The notes beneath the pieces were generated by a model. It worked only from the letters and a program-made list of their open reading frames with translations, was not told where the DNA came from and ran no database searches. 26,342 bases of DNA from Candidatus Parcubacteria bacterium (GTDB taxonomy: Bacteria; Patescibacteriota; Minisyncoccia; Phycocordibacterales; UBA5272): assembly GCA_039799445.1 (NCBI GenBank), contig JBDLSO010000001.1, forward strand, positions 1 to 26,342, written 5' to 3'. Numbering within the stretch: the stretch's first letter is position 1; each line of letters begins with the position of its first letter. A program made the position numbers and the translations under genes. Below are positions 2,713 through 24,371 of this stretch, one piece after another.

Positions 2713-5700
2713 ATGAAAACAATTGATACAAAAAACTTCAACGCAATCGGAATCAAATTAGCTTCTCCAGAGGCTATACTCGGTTGGTCATATGGTGAAG
2801 TTACAAAACCTGAGACAATCAACTACCGTACAGGACGTGCAGAACGCAGCGGTTTATTTGACGAGAAAATATTTGGACCAACAAAAGATTACGAATGCTA
2901 CTGCGGGAAATACCGTCGTATTCGTTACAAAGATATAGTATGTGAAAAATGCGGGGTAGAAGTAACCAAAGCTATTGTTCGTCGCGAGCGAATGGGGCAT
3001 ATTGAGCTTGCATCTCCTGTGGCTCACGTATGGTTCTTGCGTGGTATTCCAAGTCGTATTCCACTACTACTGAACACACCACTCAACCAAGTAGAGAAGG
3101 TTGTGTACTTTGCAGCTTACATCATCACAAAAGTAGACGAGGCAGAAAAAGAAATCATCAAGAAAAATCTTGATTCGGAATTCAAATCAAAAATAAAACT
3201 AGCAGAAAGCGAAGATACTCGAGAGAAACTAAGCTCACTACTCGGTTCAACAAAGAAAGAAATAGACGAGCTAGCGCTTGGTAATGTGCTTGACGAGTCT
3301 GTCTATCACAAATATGTAGTAAAATACGGAACTTGTTTTGAAGCTGGAATTGGAGCAGAAGCTATATTCAATATATTAAAAGGTATAGATCTCAAAGCAC
3401 TTGAAACATTTATCGCAGAGAATATCGCAAGTTACAGTACTATAGATAGAGAAAAAGCAGAGAAAAGACTTTCGCTTGTTCGCTCACTGATTTCTTCAAA
3501 ACAACGACCAGAATGGATGTTCATTACTCATTTGCCAGTTATACCACCTGATCTTCGTCCTATGGTTGCCCTTGAAGGTGGTCGCCACGCAACATCAGAC
3601 GTGAATGACTTGTATCGCCGTGTTATCAATAGAAACAATCGTCTTCGCAAACTCAAAGAGATAGGTGCGCCAGACGTGATCCTTCGTAATGAAAAACGTA
3701 TCTTGCAAGAAGCTGTAGACGCGCTTATAGACAATTCACAAAGACGCGGACAAGATGCGATTATGAATCAATCACAAAAGAGACAGCTCAAATCTCTTTC
3801 TGACTCACTCAAATCAAAACAAGGACTCTTTCGTCAGAATCTACTCGGTAAACGTGTAGACTATTCAGGACGTTCGGTGATTGTGGTTGGACCTGATCTT
3901 GATTTGAACCAATGCGGTCTTCCAAAACACATGGCACTTGAATTGTTCAAACCATTTATCATCTCTAAATTACTTTCGAGTGAGCAAGCATTCAATATCC
4001 GTGGTGCAAACAAATTGATAGAAGAAGGCGACCCAGAAGTATGGGCAATACTCGAAGAAGTGATCAAGGGAAAGTATGTACTCTTGAACCGTGCGCCGAC
4101 ACTTCACCGCTTGGGTATACAAGCTTTCAATCCAAAACTTATCGAGGGTAATGCTATACAATTGCACCCGCTTGTATGTTCTGCATTCAATGCAGACTTC
4201 GACGGAGACCAGATGGCAGTGCATGTGCCACTTTCAGAGAAATCACAAGATGAAGCTCGTACTCGTATGTCAGCTGCAATCAATATATTGAAACCAGGAA
4301 GTGGAGATATAGTATTGTTGCCACAACATGATATCATTCTCGGCTCATTCTGGATGACCAAGGACATCGAAGGAGAGAAGGGCGAAGGTAAGATGTTTGC
4401 CACACCCAACGAAGCTATTACAGCTTTGGAGTTCGGACATGTTTCATACCGCGCAAAGATATATGTATTGCCGACTGATACTGCAAAGTATTCTGTATTC
4501 GAAGGAAAAGTATTCCAAACAACAGTAGGAAGACTACTCTTTAATGCTGCACTTCCATCTGACTATCCATATATCAACGAAGTAATAGAGAAAAAATATC
4601 TCGGAGTTTTGTTTGACAATGTGATAGAGAAATATGGTGTTGAAAATGTATCATCTATATTTGATAAAATCAAAAAGTTTGGTTTCAAATATGCGACAAA
4701 GTCTGGTGTCACATGGAGTATGGACGATGTACGAGCGCACAATAGTAAAGGTGCGTTGGTGCAAGCAGGAAGAGACAAAGAGTACGCTGTGCGAAACGAC
4801 TTCGAAGAGGGGCTACTCTCAGATGAAGAGCGTTATGAAAAAGTAATTGAAATCTGGCAGAATGTTGTCAATCAAATACAAAAACTAGTACCAGAATCAA
4901 TCGAGAAAGATGGATCTGTATACGATATGTTCACTTCTGGTGCCCGTGGTAGTATCGGACAAATCTCACAAATGGCTGGTATGAAGGGTCTTATCCAAAA
5001 CAATCAAGGTAGGGTAACCGACTATCCGATTGTCTCATCTTACAAAGAAGGATTAACACCACTTGAATACTTTATTACAACTCATGGTGCCCGCAAAGGA
5101 CTCTCTGACACTGCTCTCAATACTGCAAAAGCTGGGTACCTCACTCGACGTCTTGTTGATGTGGCTCAAGATGCAGTTGTTTCAGAAATCGATTGTGGTA
5201 CTAAAGAAGGTAAATCTATTAAACGTGCAAGTGCATCTGGTATAGAGATTCCATTCTCAAAGAGTCTGCGTGGACGTATAGTAGCGAAAGATATTGTAGA
5301 TCCAGCAACAAATACGACATTGTTTAAAAAAGGAACACTACTCACAAAGAAGGATGCGTTACTGGTAGAACAAACATCACTTGAAACTGTCGAAGTATTT
5401 TCTCCGCTGACATGTAAGTCAATACATGGAGTATGTCAAAAATGTTATGGTACAGATCTTGGACGCAATCGTATTGTAGCGCTTGGTGAAGCGGTTGGTA
5501 TCGTTGCAGCACAAGCCGTAGGTGAACCAGGAACACAGCTGACAATGCGTACAATACACTCGGGAGGTGTAGCGGGTGTTGATATCACACAAGGTCTACC
5601 ACGTGTCGAAGAGATTTTCGAACGTCGTATGCCAAAAAGTCCAGCTATTGTATCTCATACAAACGGTGAAGTACTTGGTATCAAACAAGAAGGCAAAGAA

Positions 5701-13288: not shown

Positions 13289-13320
13289 AAAGAGCGGCGC
13301 ACTTCGTGCGCCGTTCTTTT
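13289..13320 (+). terminator. Intrinsic terminator for gap
   Basis: aaagagcggcgcac-ttc-gtgcgccgttcttt GC-rich stem (one G-U pair) ending in a T run. Confidence 0.8.
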
Positions 13321-13330
13321 GCTCACATAT

Positions 13331-13378
13331 CAAATAAAAGAAAACCCACCCATGAGGACGGATTTCCTCGGGTGGGTT
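13331..13378 (-). terminator. Intrinsic terminator for the small minus-strand ORF
   Basis: aacccaccc(at)gagga-cggatt-tcctc-gggtgggtt hairpin with a 2-nt bulge, followed on the minus strand by TTTTCTTTTATTT. Begins at the ORF stop codon. Confidence 0.75.
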
Positions 13379-13580
13379 ATTTTGGTGCAAGATTTTCTCT
13401 CACTACATTTTTGATGTATTTAGTTAGACTGAAGCAGAACAGAAGTGCACACAACGCTGCTATTACTTCATCTCCATCTGAGGCAGAAAGTGCCATAAAG
13501 CAACAATACCATGCTGCTAGCGTTGCCCACACAGATGAGCTTTCCCATAGCACTTTCTGCAAGTGCAAAATTTTCTTCAT
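13377..13580 (-). CDS. Small orphan membrane protein, 67 aa, two predicted TM helices
   Basis: MKKILHLQK...SVWATLAAWYCCFMALSA-SDGDE-VIAALCALLFCFSLTKYIK...APK. Flanked by a near-consensus promoter and its own terminator; GGGG ends 7 nt before the ATG. Alternative start at 13598. Confidence 0.65.
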   Translation of the reverse strand: MKKILHLQKVLWESSSVWATLAAWYCCFMALSASDGDEVIAALCALLFCFSLTKYIKNVVRENLAPK

Positions 13581-13628
13581 TTTTTTTCCCCGAACCATTG
13601 GGTCACACGATATGAACCCTTCTGTAAT

Positions 13629-13657
13629 AGTATATCACTTATATATACTATTGTCAA
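13629..13657 (-). promoter_or_regulatory. Near-consensus sigma70 promoter driving the small minus-strand ORF
   Basis: Minus strand reads TTGACA (13657-13652), 17 bp, TATACT (13634-13629), with extended -10 TG. Confidence 0.85.
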
Positions 13658-13683
13658 GTCTTTTCTCTTACACTTATACAGAG

Positions 13684-13689
13684 TACACT
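13684..13689 (+). promoter_or_regulatory. Possible -10 box for leaderless rpiB
   Basis: TACACT-atatac-ATG has the same 6-nt geometry as the TGCTATACT boxes but lacks the TG extension. Confidence 0.4.
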
Positions 13690-13695
13690 ATATAC

Positions 13696-14157
13696 ATGAA
13701 TATATATATTTCTTCCGACCATGCAGGCTTTGAACTCAAAAATACACTTGTAGATTTCATTTCATCACTTGGACACACACCGATAGATATGGGACCAGAG
13801 ACACTTATTGAAAGTGACGACTATCCAGATCTCATTGCACCACTTGCTGCACATATCTCAAAAAAAGCCTCTCAAGGCGTACACGAGTTTGGTATCATTT
13901 TGGGTGGCTCTGGACAAGGAGAGGCTATGGTCGCCAACAGATTTGCTGGCGTGCGTGCGGGGGTGCTCAGTTGTGATACATTAGAGCTAGTTGTGCTGTT
14001 GAGAGAACACAATGACGCCAATATTTTGTCACTTGGTGCACGCTTTATTTCAGAAGAGACAGCCAAACGAGCAGTACAATTATTTATAGAAACTCCTTTT
14101 TCTCATGACGAGAGACATACGAGACGTATCAAAGAGATAGATATGGAGTGTGCCTAA
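13696..14157 (+). CDS. rpiB: Ribose-5-phosphate isomerase B (153 aa)
   Basis: SDHAGFELK, GGSGQGE, ANR, HNDANILSLG, RH.RRI. The ORF-track start at 13306 crosses terminators and the opposite-strand gene; family homology starts at MNIYISSDHAG (13696). Confidence 0.93.
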   Translation: MNIYISSDHAGFELKNTLVDFISSLGHTPIDMGPETLIESDDYPDLIAPLAAHISKKASQGVHEFGIILGGSGQGEAMVANRFAGVRAGVLSCDTLELVVLLREHNDANILSLGARFISEETAKRAVQLFIETPFSHDERHTRRIKEIDMECA

Positions 14158-14175: not shown

Positions 14176-14204
14176 TTGAAATTGATTGTTCTCGGGAATA
14201 GAAT
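14176..14204 (+). promoter_or_regulatory. Candidate sigma70 promoter for rpe
   Basis: TTGAAA (14176-14181), 17 bp, TAGAAT (14199-14204). Confidence 0.55.
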
Positions 14205-14281
14205 GCATGCAAACCCTACTACAAACAAACAATGACTCTATATTCTTTACAAAATACTACTTACTAGATTGTCCAATACAT

Positions 14282-14995
14282 ATGGAAGAACATACTACAT
14301 ACAATAAAATAGAATTTATACCAGCAGTACTTACTACTGACTTCCTGAAAATAAGCGAACTCGTATTACGTACTGGTAAAGCTAGCAAATGGATACAAAT
14401 AGATATATGCGATGGTGTATTTGTATCGACAGAAACCTGGCCATATGTACGTAAAGTACTACCAGTATTCAATGATGATTTTGAGCTGCCGAGTTGGGAC
14501 ACAATGAATTACGAAGCGGATTTGATGATTGCGAATCCAAGCCAGCATATAGACAATCTCAAAAATATAGGATTTAGTCGCGCGGTGATACATATAGGAA
14601 GTGAATCGGTAGCAAATCTACTGATTGCTGCTACGAAGCTTACTTCATATGATATTGAAGTTGGTGTGGGTATCAGTGTACATTCAGAACAATCCGAAGC
14701 TATAGAATTTTTGAAATCACTTGTTGATACAAATATCCCTCACTATATACAGATAATGGGAATAGAGAACCTAGGCGTGCAAGGACAGCCATTTTCAGAC
14801 CAATGCACAAAGCTCGTAGATACATACAAATCACTGTACCCAAACACTGTTATACAGATAGATGGCGCTGTGAACGAAAGCAATATCAAAGAGTTATATG
14901 ACGCTGGCGCAGATAGTTTTGTGCTTGGTTCATACCTATCGGGCTATGGAAGTGTATCCGATAAAATACAGACGCTAAAAAATTTGCTATACTAA
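14282..14995 (+). CDS. rpe: Ribulose-phosphate 3-epimerase family protein (divergent metal site)
   Basis: IPAVL, QIDICDGVFV, EADLMIANP, QIMGI...G.QGQPF, IQIDGAVN, GAD.FVLGS, in an rpiB/transketolase context. Start taken as MEEHTT (14282). Confidence 0.88.
   Translation: MEEHTTYNKIEFIPAVLTTDFLKISELVLRTGKASKWIQIDICDGVFVSTETWPYVRKVLPVFNDDFELPSWDTMNYEADLMIANPSQHIDNLKNIGFSRAVIHIGSESVANLLIAATKLTSYDIEVGVGISVHSEQSEAIEFLKSLVDTNIPHYIQIMGIENLGVQGQPFSDQCTKLVDTYKSLYPNTVIQIDGAVNESNIKELYDAGADSFVLGSYLSGYGSVSDKIQTLKNLLY
14985..14993 (+). promoter_or_regulatory. Extended -10 box embedded in the last codons of rpe, ahead of the transketolase N-half
   Basis: TGCTATACT-aatact-ATG(15000), formed by rpe codons ttg cta tac taa. 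Confidence 0.6.
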
Positions 14996-17608: not shown

Positions 17609-18208
17609 ATGAAAAAAGAAGAATTAGAAGAGTTGTTTAGAGATGGTAAGATTACAGAGATTGTTGAAGAGGTCAAAAAATACCTTGATACAGGTGTAAT
17701 TGAATATGATACTATTCTCAATTATTTACTGGTAATAGAACAAAATATCTACCAGTATTTTGGAACTGATTTGGACTATCTGTTGGATAGACTCTATAGC
17801 GTGGGATATACTTATTTTCCTCAACTAACAAAAAAATACATTGATTACCTTCAAAACAAAAAGCAGGATACGATAACAGCATTTAATATTGTTAAAAAAG
17901 ACAAAGAAATAAAAGAAAAAATCGGACCTTATTTATATTATCTAATACTAAGTGATGGATATGAGTTTGAAAAAAAATACAAAATTGCTCTTGACTGCTT
18001 AAAAGCTGGTTCTGAACAGTCAACAATTTTATGGCAGAAGGAGTTCTTTGAGATGAATATTAAAAGACTAAAAAATAAAAATAATATCTTCTTGAAGATA
18101 TCAGATGAGCTAACAATTTATGCAAATTTTATTCTGTGGATTATACTTATTTTACTCATACCGTATTTTGGAAGTATTCTAATTAAAATAATTTTTAATA
18201 TCCAATAA
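17609..18208 (+). CDS. Hypothetical low-GC protein (199 aa) with a C-terminal TM helix
   Basis: Open frame filling the space between tkt-C and mraY (2-nt and 1-nt gaps); C-terminal hydrophobic stretch FILWIILILLIPYFGSILIKIIF; no family recognised. Confidence 0.75.
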   Translation: MKKEELEELFRDGKITEIVEEVKKYLDTGVIEYDTILNYLLVIEQNIYQYFGTDLDYLLDRLYSVGYTYFPQLTKKYIDYLQNKKQDTITAFNIVKKDKEIKEKIGPYLYYLILSDGYEFEKKYKIALDCLKAGSEQSTILWQKEFFEMNIKRLKNKNNIFLKISDELTIYANFILWIILILLIPYFGSILIKIIFNIQ

Positions 18209-18209
18209 T

Positions 18210-19262
18210 ATGTTTATATTTGAAGCTATCAAAATTTTTGTTCCAACTATTGTATCGTTTGGCTTCGGTATGCTTATCGCTCCGTATGTTGTACGTTTTC
18301 TGAGAGCAAAAAAGCTATGGAAAAAAGTCAATGTCAAACTAGCACTTGGTGGTGGGGAAGCGACTATATCAAGCAAACTGCACAATGACGAGGAAAAGAA
18401 AATACCGCGTATGGGAGGCACGGTCGTATGGCTGAGCGTGCTCTTTACCAGCCTTGTCTTTTGGCTTTTATCGAATTTTCTAGGTGGTATTCCTGAGCTT
18501 GATTTCATCAGTCGTAGTCAAACATGGTTACCACTTTTTACTATGCTTGTTGGTGCACTCATTGGACTTGTTGACGATTTTGCTGTGACTGGTACCTTTG
18601 GTTCATATGTTGGTGGTGGATTATCATTGAAACTTCGTATTCTACTTGTTTCTCTAATGTCGCTCATTCTTGGGTATTGGTTTTATTTCAAACTTGGAAT
18701 GAGTGTTATTGATATACCTTTTTATGGCGGACTGTACATTGGAATACTGATCATACCTTTTATGATACTGACTATGGTAGCAATATTTTCGGGCGGTATT
18801 ATCGATGGTATAGATGGGCTCTCTGGAAGTATTATGAGTTCTATGTTTGCAGCTTACGGTATGATAGCGGTATTCAATGCTCAAATAGACATAGCGGCAT
18901 TTTGTTTCGTGGTTGTTGGAGCGATACTCGCTTTTCTTTGGTACAATATTCCACCTGCTCAGTTTTATATGTCCGAAACAGGGATGCTTGCTCTCACGAC
19001 TTCACTGACTGTCGTTGCTTTTCTTACAGACGCAGTGATGCTTTTGCCTATTATTGCTTTTCCGCTTTTCACGGCTAGTGGTTCATCTATACTGCAAATC
19101 GCATCAAAAAAACTGCGTAAAGGTAAAAAGATATTTACAGTAGCCCCTGTACATAATCATTTCCAAGCAAATGGTATGGCAGGCTATACTGTCACAATGC
19201 GATACTGGATAGTTTCATTTATGTGTGCTTTAACTGGGGTGATACTTCACATCATTGGATAA
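18210..19262 (+). CDS. mraY: Phospho-N-acetylmuramoyl-pentapeptide transferase (MraY family, divergent)
   Basis: Polytopic membrane protein with P.MGG, GLVDD, DGIDGL, N.PPA.FYM, AP.H.H, directly upstream of ftsW-murG. Confidence 0.88.
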   Translation: MFIFEAIKIFVPTIVSFGFGMLIAPYVVRFLRAKKLWKKVNVKLALGGGEATISSKLHNDEEKKIPRMGGTVVWLSVLFTSLVFWLLSNFLGGIPELDFISRSQTWLPLFTMLVGALIGLVDDFAVTGTFGSYVGGGLSLKLRILLVSLMSLILGYWFYFKLGMSVIDIPFYGGLYIGILIIPFMILTMVAIFSGGIIDGIDGLSGSIMSSMFAAYGMIAVFNAQIDIAAFCFVVVGAILAFLWYNIPPAQFYMSETGMLALTTSLTVVAFLTDAVMLLPIIAFPLFTASGSSILQIASKKLRKGKKIFTVAPVHNHFQANGMAGYTVTMRYWIVSFMCALTGVILHIIG

Positions 19263-19268
19263 CAATAC

Positions 19269-20375
19269 ATGGTAAAAAAAATACAAAAAATAGATCGTGT
19301 ATTTCTCGGAATAATAGCAAGTATTCTCATTTTTGGGTTACTTATGTTTGGTTCTGCTGCGCTTGGTGTACTTGCCAAAAATGAGACAAAGTTTTACAGC
19401 ATATTATTGAATCAATTTGTATATGCATTACTTGGAGGACTGCTAGCACTTGGTATCGGTCTTTTTGTACATTATACACATTTCAAAAAGTACTCATTTC
19501 ATTTCTATATAATAACCTTATTATTAACAGCACTTGTTTTTGTACCAGGTATCGGCTTTGCTCATGGTGGTGCAAGCCGTTGGATACATATATTTAATTT
19601 TAGTTTACAGCCTTCTGAATTCTTGAAAATAGGAACTGTTCTATTCTTTGCAAATTGGCTTGCAACAAACAAAAAAAGACTTGGTGATGTAGCCTTTGGA
19701 CTAGTACCATTTTGTATCATCGCTGGAGTGCCATTTATACTACTACTGCTACAACCAGATACAGGGACTGGTGCAATTATTTTCTTATCGGCATTTGCGA
19801 TGTATATTGTAGCTGGTGCAAAGTGGCGTGACGTTGGTATTGTATTTATCGCAGGAATACTTGGGCTTATTATACTTGCAACAATGCGACCCTATGTAAT
19901 GGATCGTATCAAGACATTCATAGATCCAAGTCATGACTCTACTGGTTCATCGTATCAATTGCAACAATCACTCATAGCGATTGGTAGTGGTGGTACATTT
20001 GGACGTGGATATGGTCAAAGTATACAAAAATTCAATTTTCTACCAGAGCCAATAGGCGACTCAATATTTGCAGTTGTTGGTGAAGAGCTTGGTATTATTG
20101 GAGGAAGTATTATATTGCTTTTATTTACAGCGCTGGCTATAAGAGGAATGAAGTTAGCGCGTATGGTAAAAGACTCTTTTGGTTCTTATTTAATTGTTGG
20201 TGTGACTTCTATATATTTGATTCAAGCATTTATGAACATTGCTTCTATGCTTGGTATATTTCCACTCACTGGTGTACCTCTTCCATTTATCTCTCATGGA
20301 GGTACAGCTCTTTTGACTGCACTCTTTGGTGTTGGTATAATACTAAACATATCGAAGTATCGTTCGAATATCTAA
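19269..20375 (+). CDS. ftsW: SEDS-family peptidoglycan polymerase FtsW/RodA
   Basis: GASRWI, QPSEFLK, QPDTG, YQLQQSLIAIGSGG..G.G.G.S.QK, LPEPIGDSIFAVVGEELG (catalytic Asp region intact), G.PLPFISHGG. Confidence 0.93.
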   Translation: MVKKIQKIDRVFLGIIASILIFGLLMFGSAALGVLAKNETKFYSILLNQFVYALLGGLLALGIGLFVHYTHFKKYSFHFYIITLLLTALVFVPGIGFAHGGASRWIHIFNFSLQPSEFLKIGTVLFFANWLATNKKRLGDVAFGLVPFCIIAGVPFILLLLQPDTGTGAIIFLSAFAMYIVAGAKWRDVGIVFIAGILGLIILATMRPYVMDRIKTFIDPSHDSTGSSYQLQQSLIAIGSGGTFGRGYGQSIQKFNFLPEPIGDSIFAVVGEELGIIGGSIILLLFTALAIRGMKLARMVKDSFGSYLIVGVTSIYLIQAFMNIASMLGIFPLTGVPLPFISHGGTALLTALFGVGIILNISKYRSNI

Positions 20376-20379
20376 CATT

Positions 20380-21507
20380 ATGAAAATTGCATTTACTGGA
20401 GATAGTACAAGTGGGCAATTTTATCCTATTATTGCCATTGCTGAGCGCGTACATGAACGTGCAGAAGCAAGGCATCTTGTAGCTCCCAAACTATACTTTA
20501 TAGCACCAAATGAATACAGTGCCGTACATCTTTTCAATAATCAAATCACTTTTGTAAAAACAACTGGATCAGAGAAAAGTCCGCACGGTGAAGCTGTTTC
20601 TTTTATTCAATACGTAAAATCATTTGTCAGTATCATACGAGCAACAACTCAACTCTTTTTCATATTTCCTGATGTATTACTTTCCAAAGGTGGTACTACT
20701 TCTTTTCCAATACTAGTCGCTGCACGAATACTTGGTATACCTGTGATGATACACGAGACTGACACCATACCAAGTGGTTCAAATCTCTGGGCAGCCAAAT
20801 TTGCAAAACGCATTGGTGTAGCATACAAAACCGCAGCAGCACTTTTCCCAGCCGAGAAAACAGCATATGTGGGGCAACCAATACGAAAAGAAATAGAGTA
20901 CCCACTCACCGAAGGTGCTCGTGAATATTTACACCTTGAAGCAAATGTGCCTGTGATACTTGTACTTGGTGGCACAGGTGAGGGAAATGTGATAAATGAT
21001 ACTATCGTCAACTCACTACCATTCTTACTTGATTCGTATCAAATAATTCACCAAACAGGCAAAGATCAGATACAAACAATGCGTGAGATTTCAAAGGTAA
21101 TATTGAAAGACAATCCTCATGCAAGTAGATATCATCCATTTAGTTATTTGGACGATTTGGCGGTGCGTATGGCGGCTGGCTCTGCTTCGATAGCAATATC
21201 CCAAGCTGGTTCTGTCATGTTTGAATTAGCTAGCTGGCAAGTACCTGCGATAGTGATACCTGTAACTCATTCAAAAGATGATCATCAGAAAAAAAATGCA
21301 TTTGCCTATGCACGCATTGGTGGTGCAGAAGTGATTGAAGAAGCGAATCTGACTCCACACTTGCTAGTGAACGAAATCAATCGTCTGATGCAAAATCCAC
21401 AAATTCGAAACGAAATGAAAGAAGGCGCGAGGGAGTTCCACAAAACAGATGCAGCTAGCAAAATAGCAGATGGATTACTCGATATTGCACTTACTCATGA
21501 GCAATAG
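20380..21507 (+). CDS. murG: MurG-like GT-B glycosyltransferase with degenerate signature motifs
   Basis: MurG position and layout (FYPIIA, KGG..S.P, IP..IHE, G.PIR, HQTG, E.A....P...IP, HQ..NA), but the G-loops and the conserved His are altered (see findings). Confidence 0.85.
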   Translation: MKIAFTGDSTSGQFYPIIAIAERVHERAEARHLVAPKLYFIAPNEYSAVHLFNNQITFVKTTGSEKSPHGEAVSFIQYVKSFVSIIRATTQLFFIFPDVLLSKGGTTSFPILVAARILGIPVMIHETDTIPSGSNLWAAKFAKRIGVAYKTAAALFPAEKTAYVGQPIRKEIEYPLTEGAREYLHLEANVPVILVLGGTGEGNVINDTIVNSLPFLLDSYQIIHQTGKDQIQTMREISKVILKDNPHASRYHPFSYLDDLAVRMAAGSASIAISQAGSVMFELASWQVPAIVIPVTHSKDDHQKKNAFAYARIGGAEVIEEANLTPHLLVNEINRLMQNPQIRNEMKEGAREFHKTDAASKIADGLLDIALTHEQ

Positions 21508-23075: not shown

Positions 23076-24371
23076 ATGCGATCTCAACCGAAAAAAAACT
23101 ATGCTCAATTCATAGCACTACTCTCTGTATATAGTGTATTTTCTCTGACTGTTGCTCACGCTGGTATAGTAGAAGACCTCAAAGAAAAAATTAACAATGC
23201 AGGTGATCAGGTAAAAAACATCGAAAAAGAAATTGCCGCATACAACGAGCAACTCAAAAAAACACAAGCAGAGAAAAATACACTCAACAGCGCAATCAAG
23301 ACGCTTGATATCAACAAACAAATTGTTACCAAAGATATTACACTTACTAAAACAAAAATAGTGGGTGCAAATGAAACAATCGAAGAGATAAACACTGGTA
23401 TACAGAAACTCGAAGCAAATATCAGTACAAGTAAATTATATTTAAGAAAATCATTACAAAATCTAGCACTCGACGACAGCCTTGCAAACTCTGGGTTGAT
23501 AGCAACTATGCTTGGTTCAGATTCTATATCAGAAGCTGTAGACAGAGCGTCGACACTAGCAAATTTTCAACGTAGCATGCTCACTCATATAAATGATATA
23601 CGTGACAACAAGCAAGATCTTCTGAGTGTACAACAAGTCAAGACAGAACAACGCAATGAACTACTCAATCTCAACCAAGAGCTCATCGCCAAACAACGTA
23701 TACTTGCAGATGCTGCAGCACAAAAAGCAAGCTTATTGAAAACAACAAAAAACAAAGAAGCCAATTATCAAGCTGAACTCAAAAAAAGACAAGAAACCAA
23801 AAAGAAGCTTGAGCAAGAAATGCTTGCGTTTGAAAACGAACTCAAAGTAGCAATTGATCCAAATACACTTCCAAAAACAGGAAAAGGTGTACTCGGATAC
23901 CCTGTTTCAAAAGTAACAATCACACAATATTTTGGCAACACTGCCTTTGCTAGTAAAAATGCACAAGTATATAACGGTGGTGGTCACAATGGTGTAGACT
24001 TTGGTGTGTCTACTGGCAACCGTATACTCTCAGCTGCAAGTGGTGTAGTACAAGGTACTGGTGACACTGATACTGCGTGCAGGGGTGCTTCATATGGCAA
24101 ATGGGTGCTAATACGCCACAACAACGGTTTATCGACCCTATATGCCCATTTATCGGCTATTTCAGTCTCTTCTGGGCAAGCTGTAGAGCGTGGTGGGGTG
24201 ATTGGGCTTTCAGGAAATACTGGGTACTCGACAGGGCCACATTTGCATTTTACTGTTTTTGCAAGTAAAGCGGTGTCAATAGTCAACAGACAATCAAAAG
24301 CATGTGGCACAATGATGACACTTCCGGTGAGTCCAACCAACGGGTATCTCAATCCACTTTCTTACTTCTAA
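23076..24371 (+). CDS. Exported coiled-coil protein with a C-terminal M23 (LytM) metallopeptidase domain
   Basis: Signal peptide ending in AHA, long coiled coil, ITQYFG, intact Zn ligands HNGVD and GPHLHF, YGKWVLIRH.NG..TLYAHL, NPL. Confidence 0.9.
   Translation: MRSQPKKNYAQFIALLSVYSVFSLTVAHAGIVEDLKEKINNAGDQVKNIEKEIAAYNEQLKKTQAEKNTLNSAIKTLDINKQIVTKDITLTKTKIVGANETIEEINTGIQKLEANISTSKLYLRKSLQNLALDDSLANSGLIATMLGSDSISEAVDRASTLANFQRSMLTHINDIRDNKQDLLSVQQVKTEQRNELLNLNQELIAKQRILADAAAQKASLLKTTKNKEANYQAELKKRQETKKKLEQEMLAFENELKVAIDPNTLPKTGKGVLGYPVSKVTITQYFGNTAFASKNAQVYNGGGHNGVDFGVSTGNRILSAASGVVQGTGDTDTACRGASYGKWVLIRHNNGLSTLYAHLSAISVSSGQAVERGGVIGLSGNTGYSTGPHLHFTVFASKAVSIVNRQSKACGTMMTLPVSPTNGYLNPLSYF

Follow-up and report, generated by a model that had tools for sequence, protein, structure and literature searches.

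A MurG homologue with degenerate motifs in the mraY-ftsW operon of a Parcubacteria bacterium that carries a second, foreign MurG

Canonical MurG (EC 2.4.1.227) is a member of glycosyltransferase family 28 (GT28), is described by the equivalog model TIGR01133, and has been structurally characterized from E. coli (1F0K and 1NLM), P. aeruginosa (3S2U), and A. baumannii (7D1I). The MurG homologue considered here is encoded on a stretch of 26,342 nucleotides, referred to as the window, which is contig C1 of genome G000 from a Parcubacteria/Paceibacteria-type organism (assembly of 603 kb in 63 contigs, 91.8% complete, 0.85% contamination). This protein (P0001) is the degenerate copy of the division and cell wall (dcw) cluster and is designated MurG*; a second copy in the same genome (P0002) is designated MurG2. 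MurG* is like canonical MurG in the synteny mraY-ftsW-murG-gltX, in its position in the tree, and in its two-domain GT-B fold, and it keeps the equivalents of R164, E269, Q289, and N292 of the E. coli enzyme. Unlike canonical MurG, it has Gln in place of His19 and is altered in G-loops 1 and 2, in the basic lipid-I/membrane loop, and at the PGR Arg, the GGS Ser, and R261. The two genes reside in one genome and are of native and foreign origin, respectively, and the motif loss of MurG* is specific to one clade, in which the protein is under strong constraint.

The roles of the E. coli MurG residues have been summarized (PMC5785501, citing Hu et al. 2003). T16 and H19 are key residues, the latter as the catalytic base, the G190-G191-S192 loop contacts the beta-phosphate, and T266 contacts the alpha-phosphate. 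E269 binds the ribose, R164 the uracil, and Q288, Q289, and N128 the GlcNAc, and contact with the membrane is made by a hydrophobic patch and a basic horseshoe (PMC5785501). Replacing the MurG His with Ala resulted in undetectable activity and no complementation, and the archaeal protein Agl24 was likewise inactivated (PMC8993221). The GGxGGH and GGY motifs have been proposed to bind the diphosphate of the lipid acceptor, and in pseudomurein producers the archaeal MurG-like GT28 proteins have no such His, with Asp often in its place (PMC8993221).

Three groups of described systems resemble the arrangement in part. Kitasatospora and Streptomyces also have one dcw and one non-dcw MurG-like gene, both with the two Pfam domains and with a mutual identity of about 30% (bioRxiv 10.1101/2020.10.12.336396). 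In these actinomycetes a canonical dcw copy is backed up by a functional gene outside the cluster, whereas here the roles look reversed, with the motifs lost from the dcw copy, a motif-complete xenologue outside it, and retention of both across a clade. GtfB and Asp1 of the streptococcal serine-rich repeat (SRR) adhesin pathway (bioRxiv 10.1101/219105) are inactive GT-B proteins that kept the fold, lost the catalytic and positive cleft residues, have a more acidic cleft, and serve as binding partners or helpers beside an active GT-B enzyme. MurG* shares with such inactive GT-B helpers the kept fold, the loss of catalytic and positive cleft residues, and purifying selection beside a motif-complete family member. 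However, GtfB and Asp1 belong to another glycosyltransferase family and pathway, and MurG* arose from the native enzyme after a foreign import and not by local duplication. Finally, E. coli MurG associates with MraY and MreB (PMC2170320) and B. pertussis MurG is an oligomeric scaffold that binds MurE-MurF (PMC6420597). The non-catalytic function proposed for MurG*, that of an organizer of precursor enzymes at the membrane, is taken from these reports. In these cases one protein does both jobs, whereas here the jobs would be split over two genes. The literature search found no paper that describes a conserved dead dcw MurG in Patescibacteria.

Motif state and conservation of MurG*

The mraY-ftsW-murG* run consists of three genes separated by 6 nt (mraY-ftsW) and 4 nt (ftsW-murG*).

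18210-19262, forward strand: mraY, the sole GT4/MraY gene of the genome, which opens the run
19269-20375, forward strand: ftsW, the sole SEDS gene of the genome, which ends 4 nt before murG*
20380-21507, forward strand: murG*, native dcw-cluster MurG orthologue with degenerate motifs, 375 amino acids, P0001 (Pfam, TIGR01133, synteny, tree, AlphaFold2, and Foldseek)

The frame of murG* is open over all 375 residues and is followed by gltX and then by an M23 peptidase gene. This is the single-MurG locus common to 40 of 41 related genomes. Both GT28 domains are recognized by Pfam, the N-terminal PF03033 with 49.6 bits and the C-terminal PF04101 with 95.1 bits, and on the TIGR01133 model MurG* scores 148.8 bits, under the cut-off of 250.25. 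The other members of the degenerate clade score 150-169 bits, and the canonical Paceibacteria sisters 236.6 and 254.3 bits. A search for RNA sequencing runs that hold mraY-ftsW-murG* listed none.

The motifs of MurG* are given below, all on the forward strand.

20398-20418, forward: G-loop 1, G7-D-S-T-S-G-Q13 for GGGTGGH; the catalytic-base His is Gln13 and Gly8 is Asp
20560-20631, forward: former AGKxRRYFS..N..D loop and helix of the membrane and lipid-I side, residues 61-84; variable within the clade and of low confidence in the model
20689-20697, forward: G-loop 2, G104-G105-T106 (GGT) for GGY
20770-20781, forward: PGR motif, PSGS for PGRV; Gly132 is Ser in 100% of the clade and the Arg is gone
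20968-20985, forward: G-loop 3, G197-G-T-G-E-G202 for GGSQGA; Ser is Thr and an acidic residue stands at 201
21199-21225, forward: SRAG motif, SQAGSVMFE for SRAGSTIFE; Arg275 is Gln, Thr279 is Val, and the ribose-binding Glu282 is kept
21283-21300, forward: donor-sugar motif, HQKKNA, kept

The original prediction had described this frame as a MurG with coordinated loss of its signature motifs, and its motif readings and coordinates all proved correct when they were read again. The full readout is FTGDSTSGQ, TGSEKSPH, KGGT, PSG, GGTGEG, and SQAGS.VMFE. Beyond the changes named at that time, the AGKxRRY loop (63-84) is gone, PGR has become PSG (132-133), T164 has become Val, and V279 stands for the former Thr three residues ahead of Glu282. 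G-loop 1 features three Gly substitutions, and nine conserved columns are gone in the region of residues 61-84. The basic residues K65, R67, the PGR Arg, and R275 are lost, as is Y69, and the acidic residues D8 and E201 are gained. The GGS loop reads GGT in MurG*, and two clade members have Ile at the Ser position. On the donor side, R169 (uracil), E282 (ribose), and H302-Q303..N306-A307 are kept.

The fold had been said to be preserved, and this is borne out by structure prediction. An AlphaFold2 model of MurG*, based on an alignment of 66 sequences, has a mean predicted local distance difference test score (pLDDT) of 91.4 and a predicted template modelling score (pTM) of 0.88. Low confidence is found mainly at residues 61-80, with a pLDDT of 59-74 in the 61-84 region. 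The best Protein Data Bank matches to the model in Foldseek are the MurG structures 7D1I, 1F0K, 1NLM, and 3S2U, with template modelling (TM) scores of 0.72-0.87. A prediction of the complex of MraY and MurG* gave no answer (score 0.00) and is neutral on binding.

The motif loss is a property of one clade and is not the Paceibacteria norm. All 17 of the orthologues extracted from related genomes read FTGGGTGGH, AGKxRRY, KGGY, PGR, GGSQGA, and SRAGS.TIFE, and 108 canonical Paceibacteria MurGs among metagenome proteins keep GGGTGGH, GKxR, GGY, PGR, GGSQGA, and SRAGS. Relatives of MurG* were drawn from a collection of 5.8 billion proteins, in which degenerate relatives were found at 93, 77, 75, 73, 73, 71, 66, 62, and 63% identity. 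Together they form a clade (P0001, P0243, and P0003-P0011; 62-93% identity) with the shared new states D8, S11, Q13, S132, V164, Q275, and V279, and the frames are intact, with 373-375 amino acids, in all 11 members aligned. Conservation of the new states in the clade is 91% for D8, 100% for S132, 91% for V164, 91% for Q275, and 100% for V279. All 108 canonical relatives have the G-loop 1 His (100%), and 10 of the 11 clade members have Gln there; the His is still found in clade member P0011 and in the basal P0014. The latter protein (51% identity to MurG*) is intermediate, with GDDISGH, GGK, GSD, GGATGS, and SRAGA, and P0012 and P0013 (57-58% identity) have fully canonical motifs. At least 11 independent proteins from metagenomes and metagenome-assembled genomes (MAGs) show the degenerate states, so the substitutions are not assembly errors. 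The Thr to Val change at the T266 equivalent is real (100% Val in the clade), but Thr is just 79% conserved in canonical relatives and the change carries little weight.

A comparison of the clade with the 108 canonical MurGs was made over the 142 columns with a conservation of 85% or more in the canonical set. Of these, 98 are retained at 90% or more in the clade, and 27 have an altered consensus. Altered columns are concentrated in the N-terminal (acceptor) domain, with 20 of 67 columns vs 7 of 75 in the C-terminal domain (Fisher p = 0.0024), and the net charge shift at altered conserved columns is -6, to which the loss of the PGR Arg is added. Residues 51-75, which contain most of the former basic loop 63-84, are the only block of 25 residues that is less conserved in the shallow clade than across canonical MurGs. 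Fourteen surface positions, among them R31, Q55, K60, and Y78, are invariant in the clade and specific to it. The motif and column comparisons thus agree with the view that the changes are concentrated in functional loops.

MurG2 and the origin of the two copies

A second canonical murG had been named as something to look for in the genome, and a TIGR01133 profile search located it on contig C31 at 4513-5574 on the reverse strand, with a score of 221.9 bits, above that of murG*. MurG2 features GGGSGGH, GKLRRY, KGGF, PGLAN, GGSLGA, SRGGAGSVME, and SRGDQIEN, and all members of its clade keep GGGxGGH, GKLRRY, GGF, GGSLGA, SRxGxxS..E, and DQ..N. On the PRK12446-type model NF009102 (cut-off 339), P0002 scores 334.9 bits, 4 bits short, and the related P0125 scores 348.7 bits; the MurG2 clade as a whole scores 335-349 bits vs 207-221 bits for native MurGs of the candidate phyla radiation (CPR).

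Contig C31 belongs to the same organism as the window, because it carries the only infB, rbfA, and 5' part of gyrA of the assembly, its translation initiation factor IF-2 is 57-60% identical to IF-2 from genomes of the same family, and its DUF4446-infB-rbfA synteny is common to relatives. Additionally, a sister contig of 744,958 bp from JGI (3300071567, Ga0621872_00048) holds both genes, so that the two-MurG pattern is not a binning error. The sister MurG* (P0243) is 91% identical and has the same context as in G000 (obg...tkt-mraY-ftsW-murG*-gltX-M23-LOG-EVE), and the sister MurG2 (P0125) is 72% identical and likewise lies in the context gyrA-DUF4446-infB-rbfA. A MurG2-type gene was not found in 95 other genomes of the family or in 400 genomes sampled from the order (224 genera). 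Each of these 495 genomes has a single MurG, and the best matches to MurG2 in the 400 order genomes are their own native MurGs with at most 37% identity. Two ENA samples contain both the MurG2 homologue P0131 and P0011, the MurG* that retains the His, and no shared sample was found that would supply a MurG2 partner for the P0014 lineage. Co-occurrence of murG* and murG2 is shown on single molecules or genomes for two genomes and is suggested for a third by the shared samples.

The origin of both copies was determined from a maximum-likelihood tree of 66 proteins (LG+C20). The longest internal branch (100/100) separates the native Paceibacteria MurGs and the degenerate clade from the Bacillota-type MurGs and MurG2. 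With P0014 included, the degenerate clade is a monophyletic group (100/98) within the native MurGs of the family and has the canonical P0012/P0013 as its sister; nesting of the clade in the native Paceibacteria MurGs has a support of 99-100%. MurG* is the native orthologue by both synteny and tree. MurG2 groups with the related P0137 (100/99) among sequences named Peribacillus, Lachnospiraceae, and Sporolactobacillus, and MurG2 is 42-48% identical to Bacillota MurGs and 30-36% identical to native Paceibacteria MurGs. Judged by its sequence relationships, MurG2 is foreign to the lineage and of the Bacillota-like PRK12446 type. Duplication within the family as the source of MurG2 was rejected (delta lnL, the difference in log-likelihood, 192; approximately unbiased (AU) test p = 1e-5). 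A named Bacillota donor was dropped, as a placement of MurG2 outside the named Bacillota is compatible with the AU test (p = 0.21). The MurG2 homologues of six lineages all adjoin rbfA-infB-DUF4446-gyrA, and this common neighbourhood suggests a single ancestral insertion.

Selection was assessed with 22 genes compared between G000 and the sister 745-kb contig. The number of synonymous substitutions per site (dS) is saturated in all of them, and the nonsynonymous number (dN) was used instead. Seven of the genes are given here.

GAPDH: identity 92.7%, dN 0.048
IF-2: identity 90.7%, dN 0.060
GyrA (N-terminal part): identity 92.0%, dN 0.062
MurG*: identity 90.6%, dN 0.072
MraY: identity 85.4%, dN 0.108
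FtsW: identity 83.7%, dN 0.117
MurG2: identity 72.0%, dN 0.228

The dN of MurG* is among the lowest of the 22 genes and is three times under that of MurG2. Crown distances in the tree agree in direction, with 0.11 for MurG* (P0001-P0243) vs 0.51 for MurG2 (P0002-P0125). MurG2 is the faster-evolving copy, yet its motifs are complete in every clade member. The stem of the degenerate clade has about double the length of the canonical sister's (path 0.77 vs 0.33). MurG* has gone through a burst of change followed by tight constraint; the relaxed selection that would point to simple decay is not seen at a dN of 0.072.

The surroundings of murG2 feature a stretch of about 100 nt between tRNA-Cys and murG2 (C31 5640-5745, reverse strand) that is GC-rich and could form several hairpins; an Rfam search of the contig returned two tRNAs only and no match for this stretch. 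The sequence TGGTACAAT is located 6 nt ahead of the second ATG of murG2 and matches a leaderless-type promoter box that was pointed out earlier elsewhere in the genome. The only ClpP-like gene of the genome (C31 3517-4140, reverse strand) separates rbfA from murG2. The sister contig and five relatives lack it at this site, and the region downstream of rbfA thus appears to be a rearrangement hotspot.

Wall pathway and neighbouring genes

The original prediction had proposed that the organism might use non-standard or host-derived lipid II, and it called for a search for the other wall genes. That search found three Mur ligases, Ddl, MurJ, three penicillin-binding proteins (PBPs), one MraY, and one SEDS protein (FtsW). 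MurA (PF00275) and MurB_C (PF02873) gave no match in the assembly, which is 92% complete. MurA is likewise without a match in 8 of the 41 genomes searched (G000 included), and in one related genus none of the four high-completeness genomes has it. The absence of MurA and MurB could be a truncation of the pathway or an assembly gap. With MurG2 and these wall genes present, the proposal of an unusual lipid II is not supported, and ordinary lipid II synthesis is the simpler reading.

MraY had been called a variant, and the changes are indeed present, with MSETG where solved MraYs read MGDVG (Asp to Glu) and HNH for HHH, but they are mostly typical of the lineage and occur in relatives too. SETG is found in all 8 of the relatives' MraYs aligned (7 MSETG and 1 LSETG), and 66 of 104 related MraYs have HNH vs 38 with HHH. 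The idea that the HHH to HNH change tracks the MurG* clade was rejected on this count. The changes W323M, P324A, and K327T just past HNH are specific to the wider clade, and the sister lineage with a canonical MurG already differs there.

The M23 peptidase (window 23076-24371, forward strand) was described as active-looking, and as read from its sequence the HxxxD (HNGVD) and HxH (HLH) motifs are intact. A long coiled-coil N-terminal part precedes these motifs. Between tktC and mraY lies an open reading frame (ORF) of 199 amino acids (window 17609-18208, forward strand) with a C-terminal hydrophobic helix, for which Pfam and NCBIfam searches returned no match. This ORF is not present on the sister contig, where mraY starts 8 nt after tktC, which argues for a recent insertion into the operon. 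Further upstream, rpe (window 14186-14995, forward strand) is 50% identical to the copy on the sister contig, with a dN of 0.49, against 74-93% identity for its neighbours. Either replacement of the gene or unusually fast evolution may account for this. An ORF of 283 amino acids (window 13306-14157, forward strand) matches RpiB over residues 133-278 only, and the sister rpiB has 153 amino acids. The first 130 codons of this ORF are probably a separate small gene or non-coding, which agrees with an earlier remark on this stretch.

Readings of the MurG* and MurG2 pair

The reading best supported by these results, with a probability of roughly 0.6, is that a xenologous MurG2 took over lipid II synthesis and that the native MurG* was kept as a pseudoenzyme or scaffold with a dismantled lipid-I site. 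The non-catalytic scaffold had already been proposed from the window, and the second canonical murG and the strong selection on MurG* now speak for it. The loss of MurG* activity, the division of labour, and the scaffold role would follow from the sequence comparisons as set out here. An ancestor of a small Paceibacteria clade would have acquired a PRK12446-type MurG2, which was inserted beside rbfA-infB. MurG2, with all of its catalytic and substrate motifs, is the most likely lipid II synthase. With its catalysis no longer needed, the native MurG would have lost the catalytic His, the loops that bind phosphate and lipid I, and the basic residues. Binding of lipid I by an inactive enzyme would tie up scarce carrier lipid, which may be why the diphosphate-binding elements were removed in a coordinated manner; the charge shift of -6 would keep the dead MurG* from sequestering lipid I. 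MurG* would have retained the GT-B fold, its place in the operon, and part of the UDP-sugar pocket (R169, E282, and HQ..N) for something that the foreign MurG2 could not do, and both copies would then have been locked in. The likely role of MurG* would be to organize or regulate the membrane precursor steps with MraY, FtsW, and the Mur enzymes, possibly with UDP-sugar binding.

Several points weigh against this scenario. The AU test is compatible with a donor of MurG2 outside the named Bacillota, co-occurrence is shown for only two genomes and by shared samples for a third, and the dN/dS values (about 0.05) are upper bounds only, owing to dS saturation. The import of MurG2 may have come before or after the first motif losses, and the genomes and samples that hold both genes come from lineages other than P0014 and the canonical P0012/P0013. 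Additionally, the conserved D8, S132, and Q275, together with the kept R169, E282, H302-Q303, and N306, could equally serve new catalysis or ligand sensing.

This last point leads to the tentative alternative that MurG* has taken on a new task, either as an enzyme or as a ligand sensor, which is unlikely but is the most probable of the rivals. It could be a GT28-derived transferase or hydrolase that acts on a non-diphosphate acceptor, for example with Asp8 as the base, or a UDP-GlcNAc-binding regulatory subunit of the MraY/FtsW machinery. The new states D8, S132, V164, Q275, and V279 are conserved and not random, the residues that contact uracil, ribose, and sugar (R169, E282, Q303, and N306) show little or no variation in the clade, the constraint is very strong, and the archaeal GT28 proteins of pseudomurein producers offer a parallel for a missing His with an Asp in its place (PMC8993221). 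However, Gln is unable to act as a general base, and the phosphate contacts vary within the clade, where the GGS Ser is replaced by Thr or Ile, P0004 has GST as its GGS loop, P0008 has Tyr for H302, and P0010 has Glu for Q303. The loop 61-84 on the acceptor side shows no constraint, and no new domain or partner gene is found at the murG* locus. In its boldest form, MurG* would be a new GT28-derived functional type in the mraY-ftsW operon that evolved after the lipid II role was outsourced to the imported enzyme, either as a UDP-GlcNAc-sensing gate of MraY/FtsW or as an Asp8 transferase with a non-diphosphate acceptor; this is doubtful on present evidence.

It is improbable that MurG* is still a working lipid II synthase, so that the two MurGs would be redundant or split between elongation and division, as with MurG and MurG2 of Kitasatospora. 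Actinomycetes do have functional MurG paralogues (bioRxiv 10.1101/2020.10.12.336396), MurG* has kept the fold, E282, and HQ..N, and P0011 and P0014 retain the His, but MurG* has Gln at the position where Ala abolishes the activity of both E. coli MurG and Agl24 (PMC8993221). Along with the His, the protein has lost three Gly residues of G-loop 1, GGY, K65, R67, the PGR Arg, and R275, and the hidden Markov model (HMM) score is about 90-100 bits under that of the canonical sisters. An early stage of gene decay, or an assembly or binning artefact, is very improbable. The functional replacement in the genome and the fast clade stem could be taken as signs of decay; the intact frames of the 11 clade members, a dN three times below that of MurG2, the same motif states in independent assemblies, and the presence of both genes on one 745-kb contig stand against it.

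MurG has been regarded as a universal, essential, and single-function step of wall synthesis, and its suspected role as an organizer has been hard to separate from catalysis. The clade described here would be a natural separation of function, in which one gene apparently carries the non-catalytic part only and the imported gene apparently carries the chemistry. It would also be a clean example of xenologous replacement that locks in a pseudoenzyme in a minimal genome. For the automated annotation of Patescibacteria, it is a warning that a murG found in the dcw cluster need not be the gene of the active lipid II synthase.

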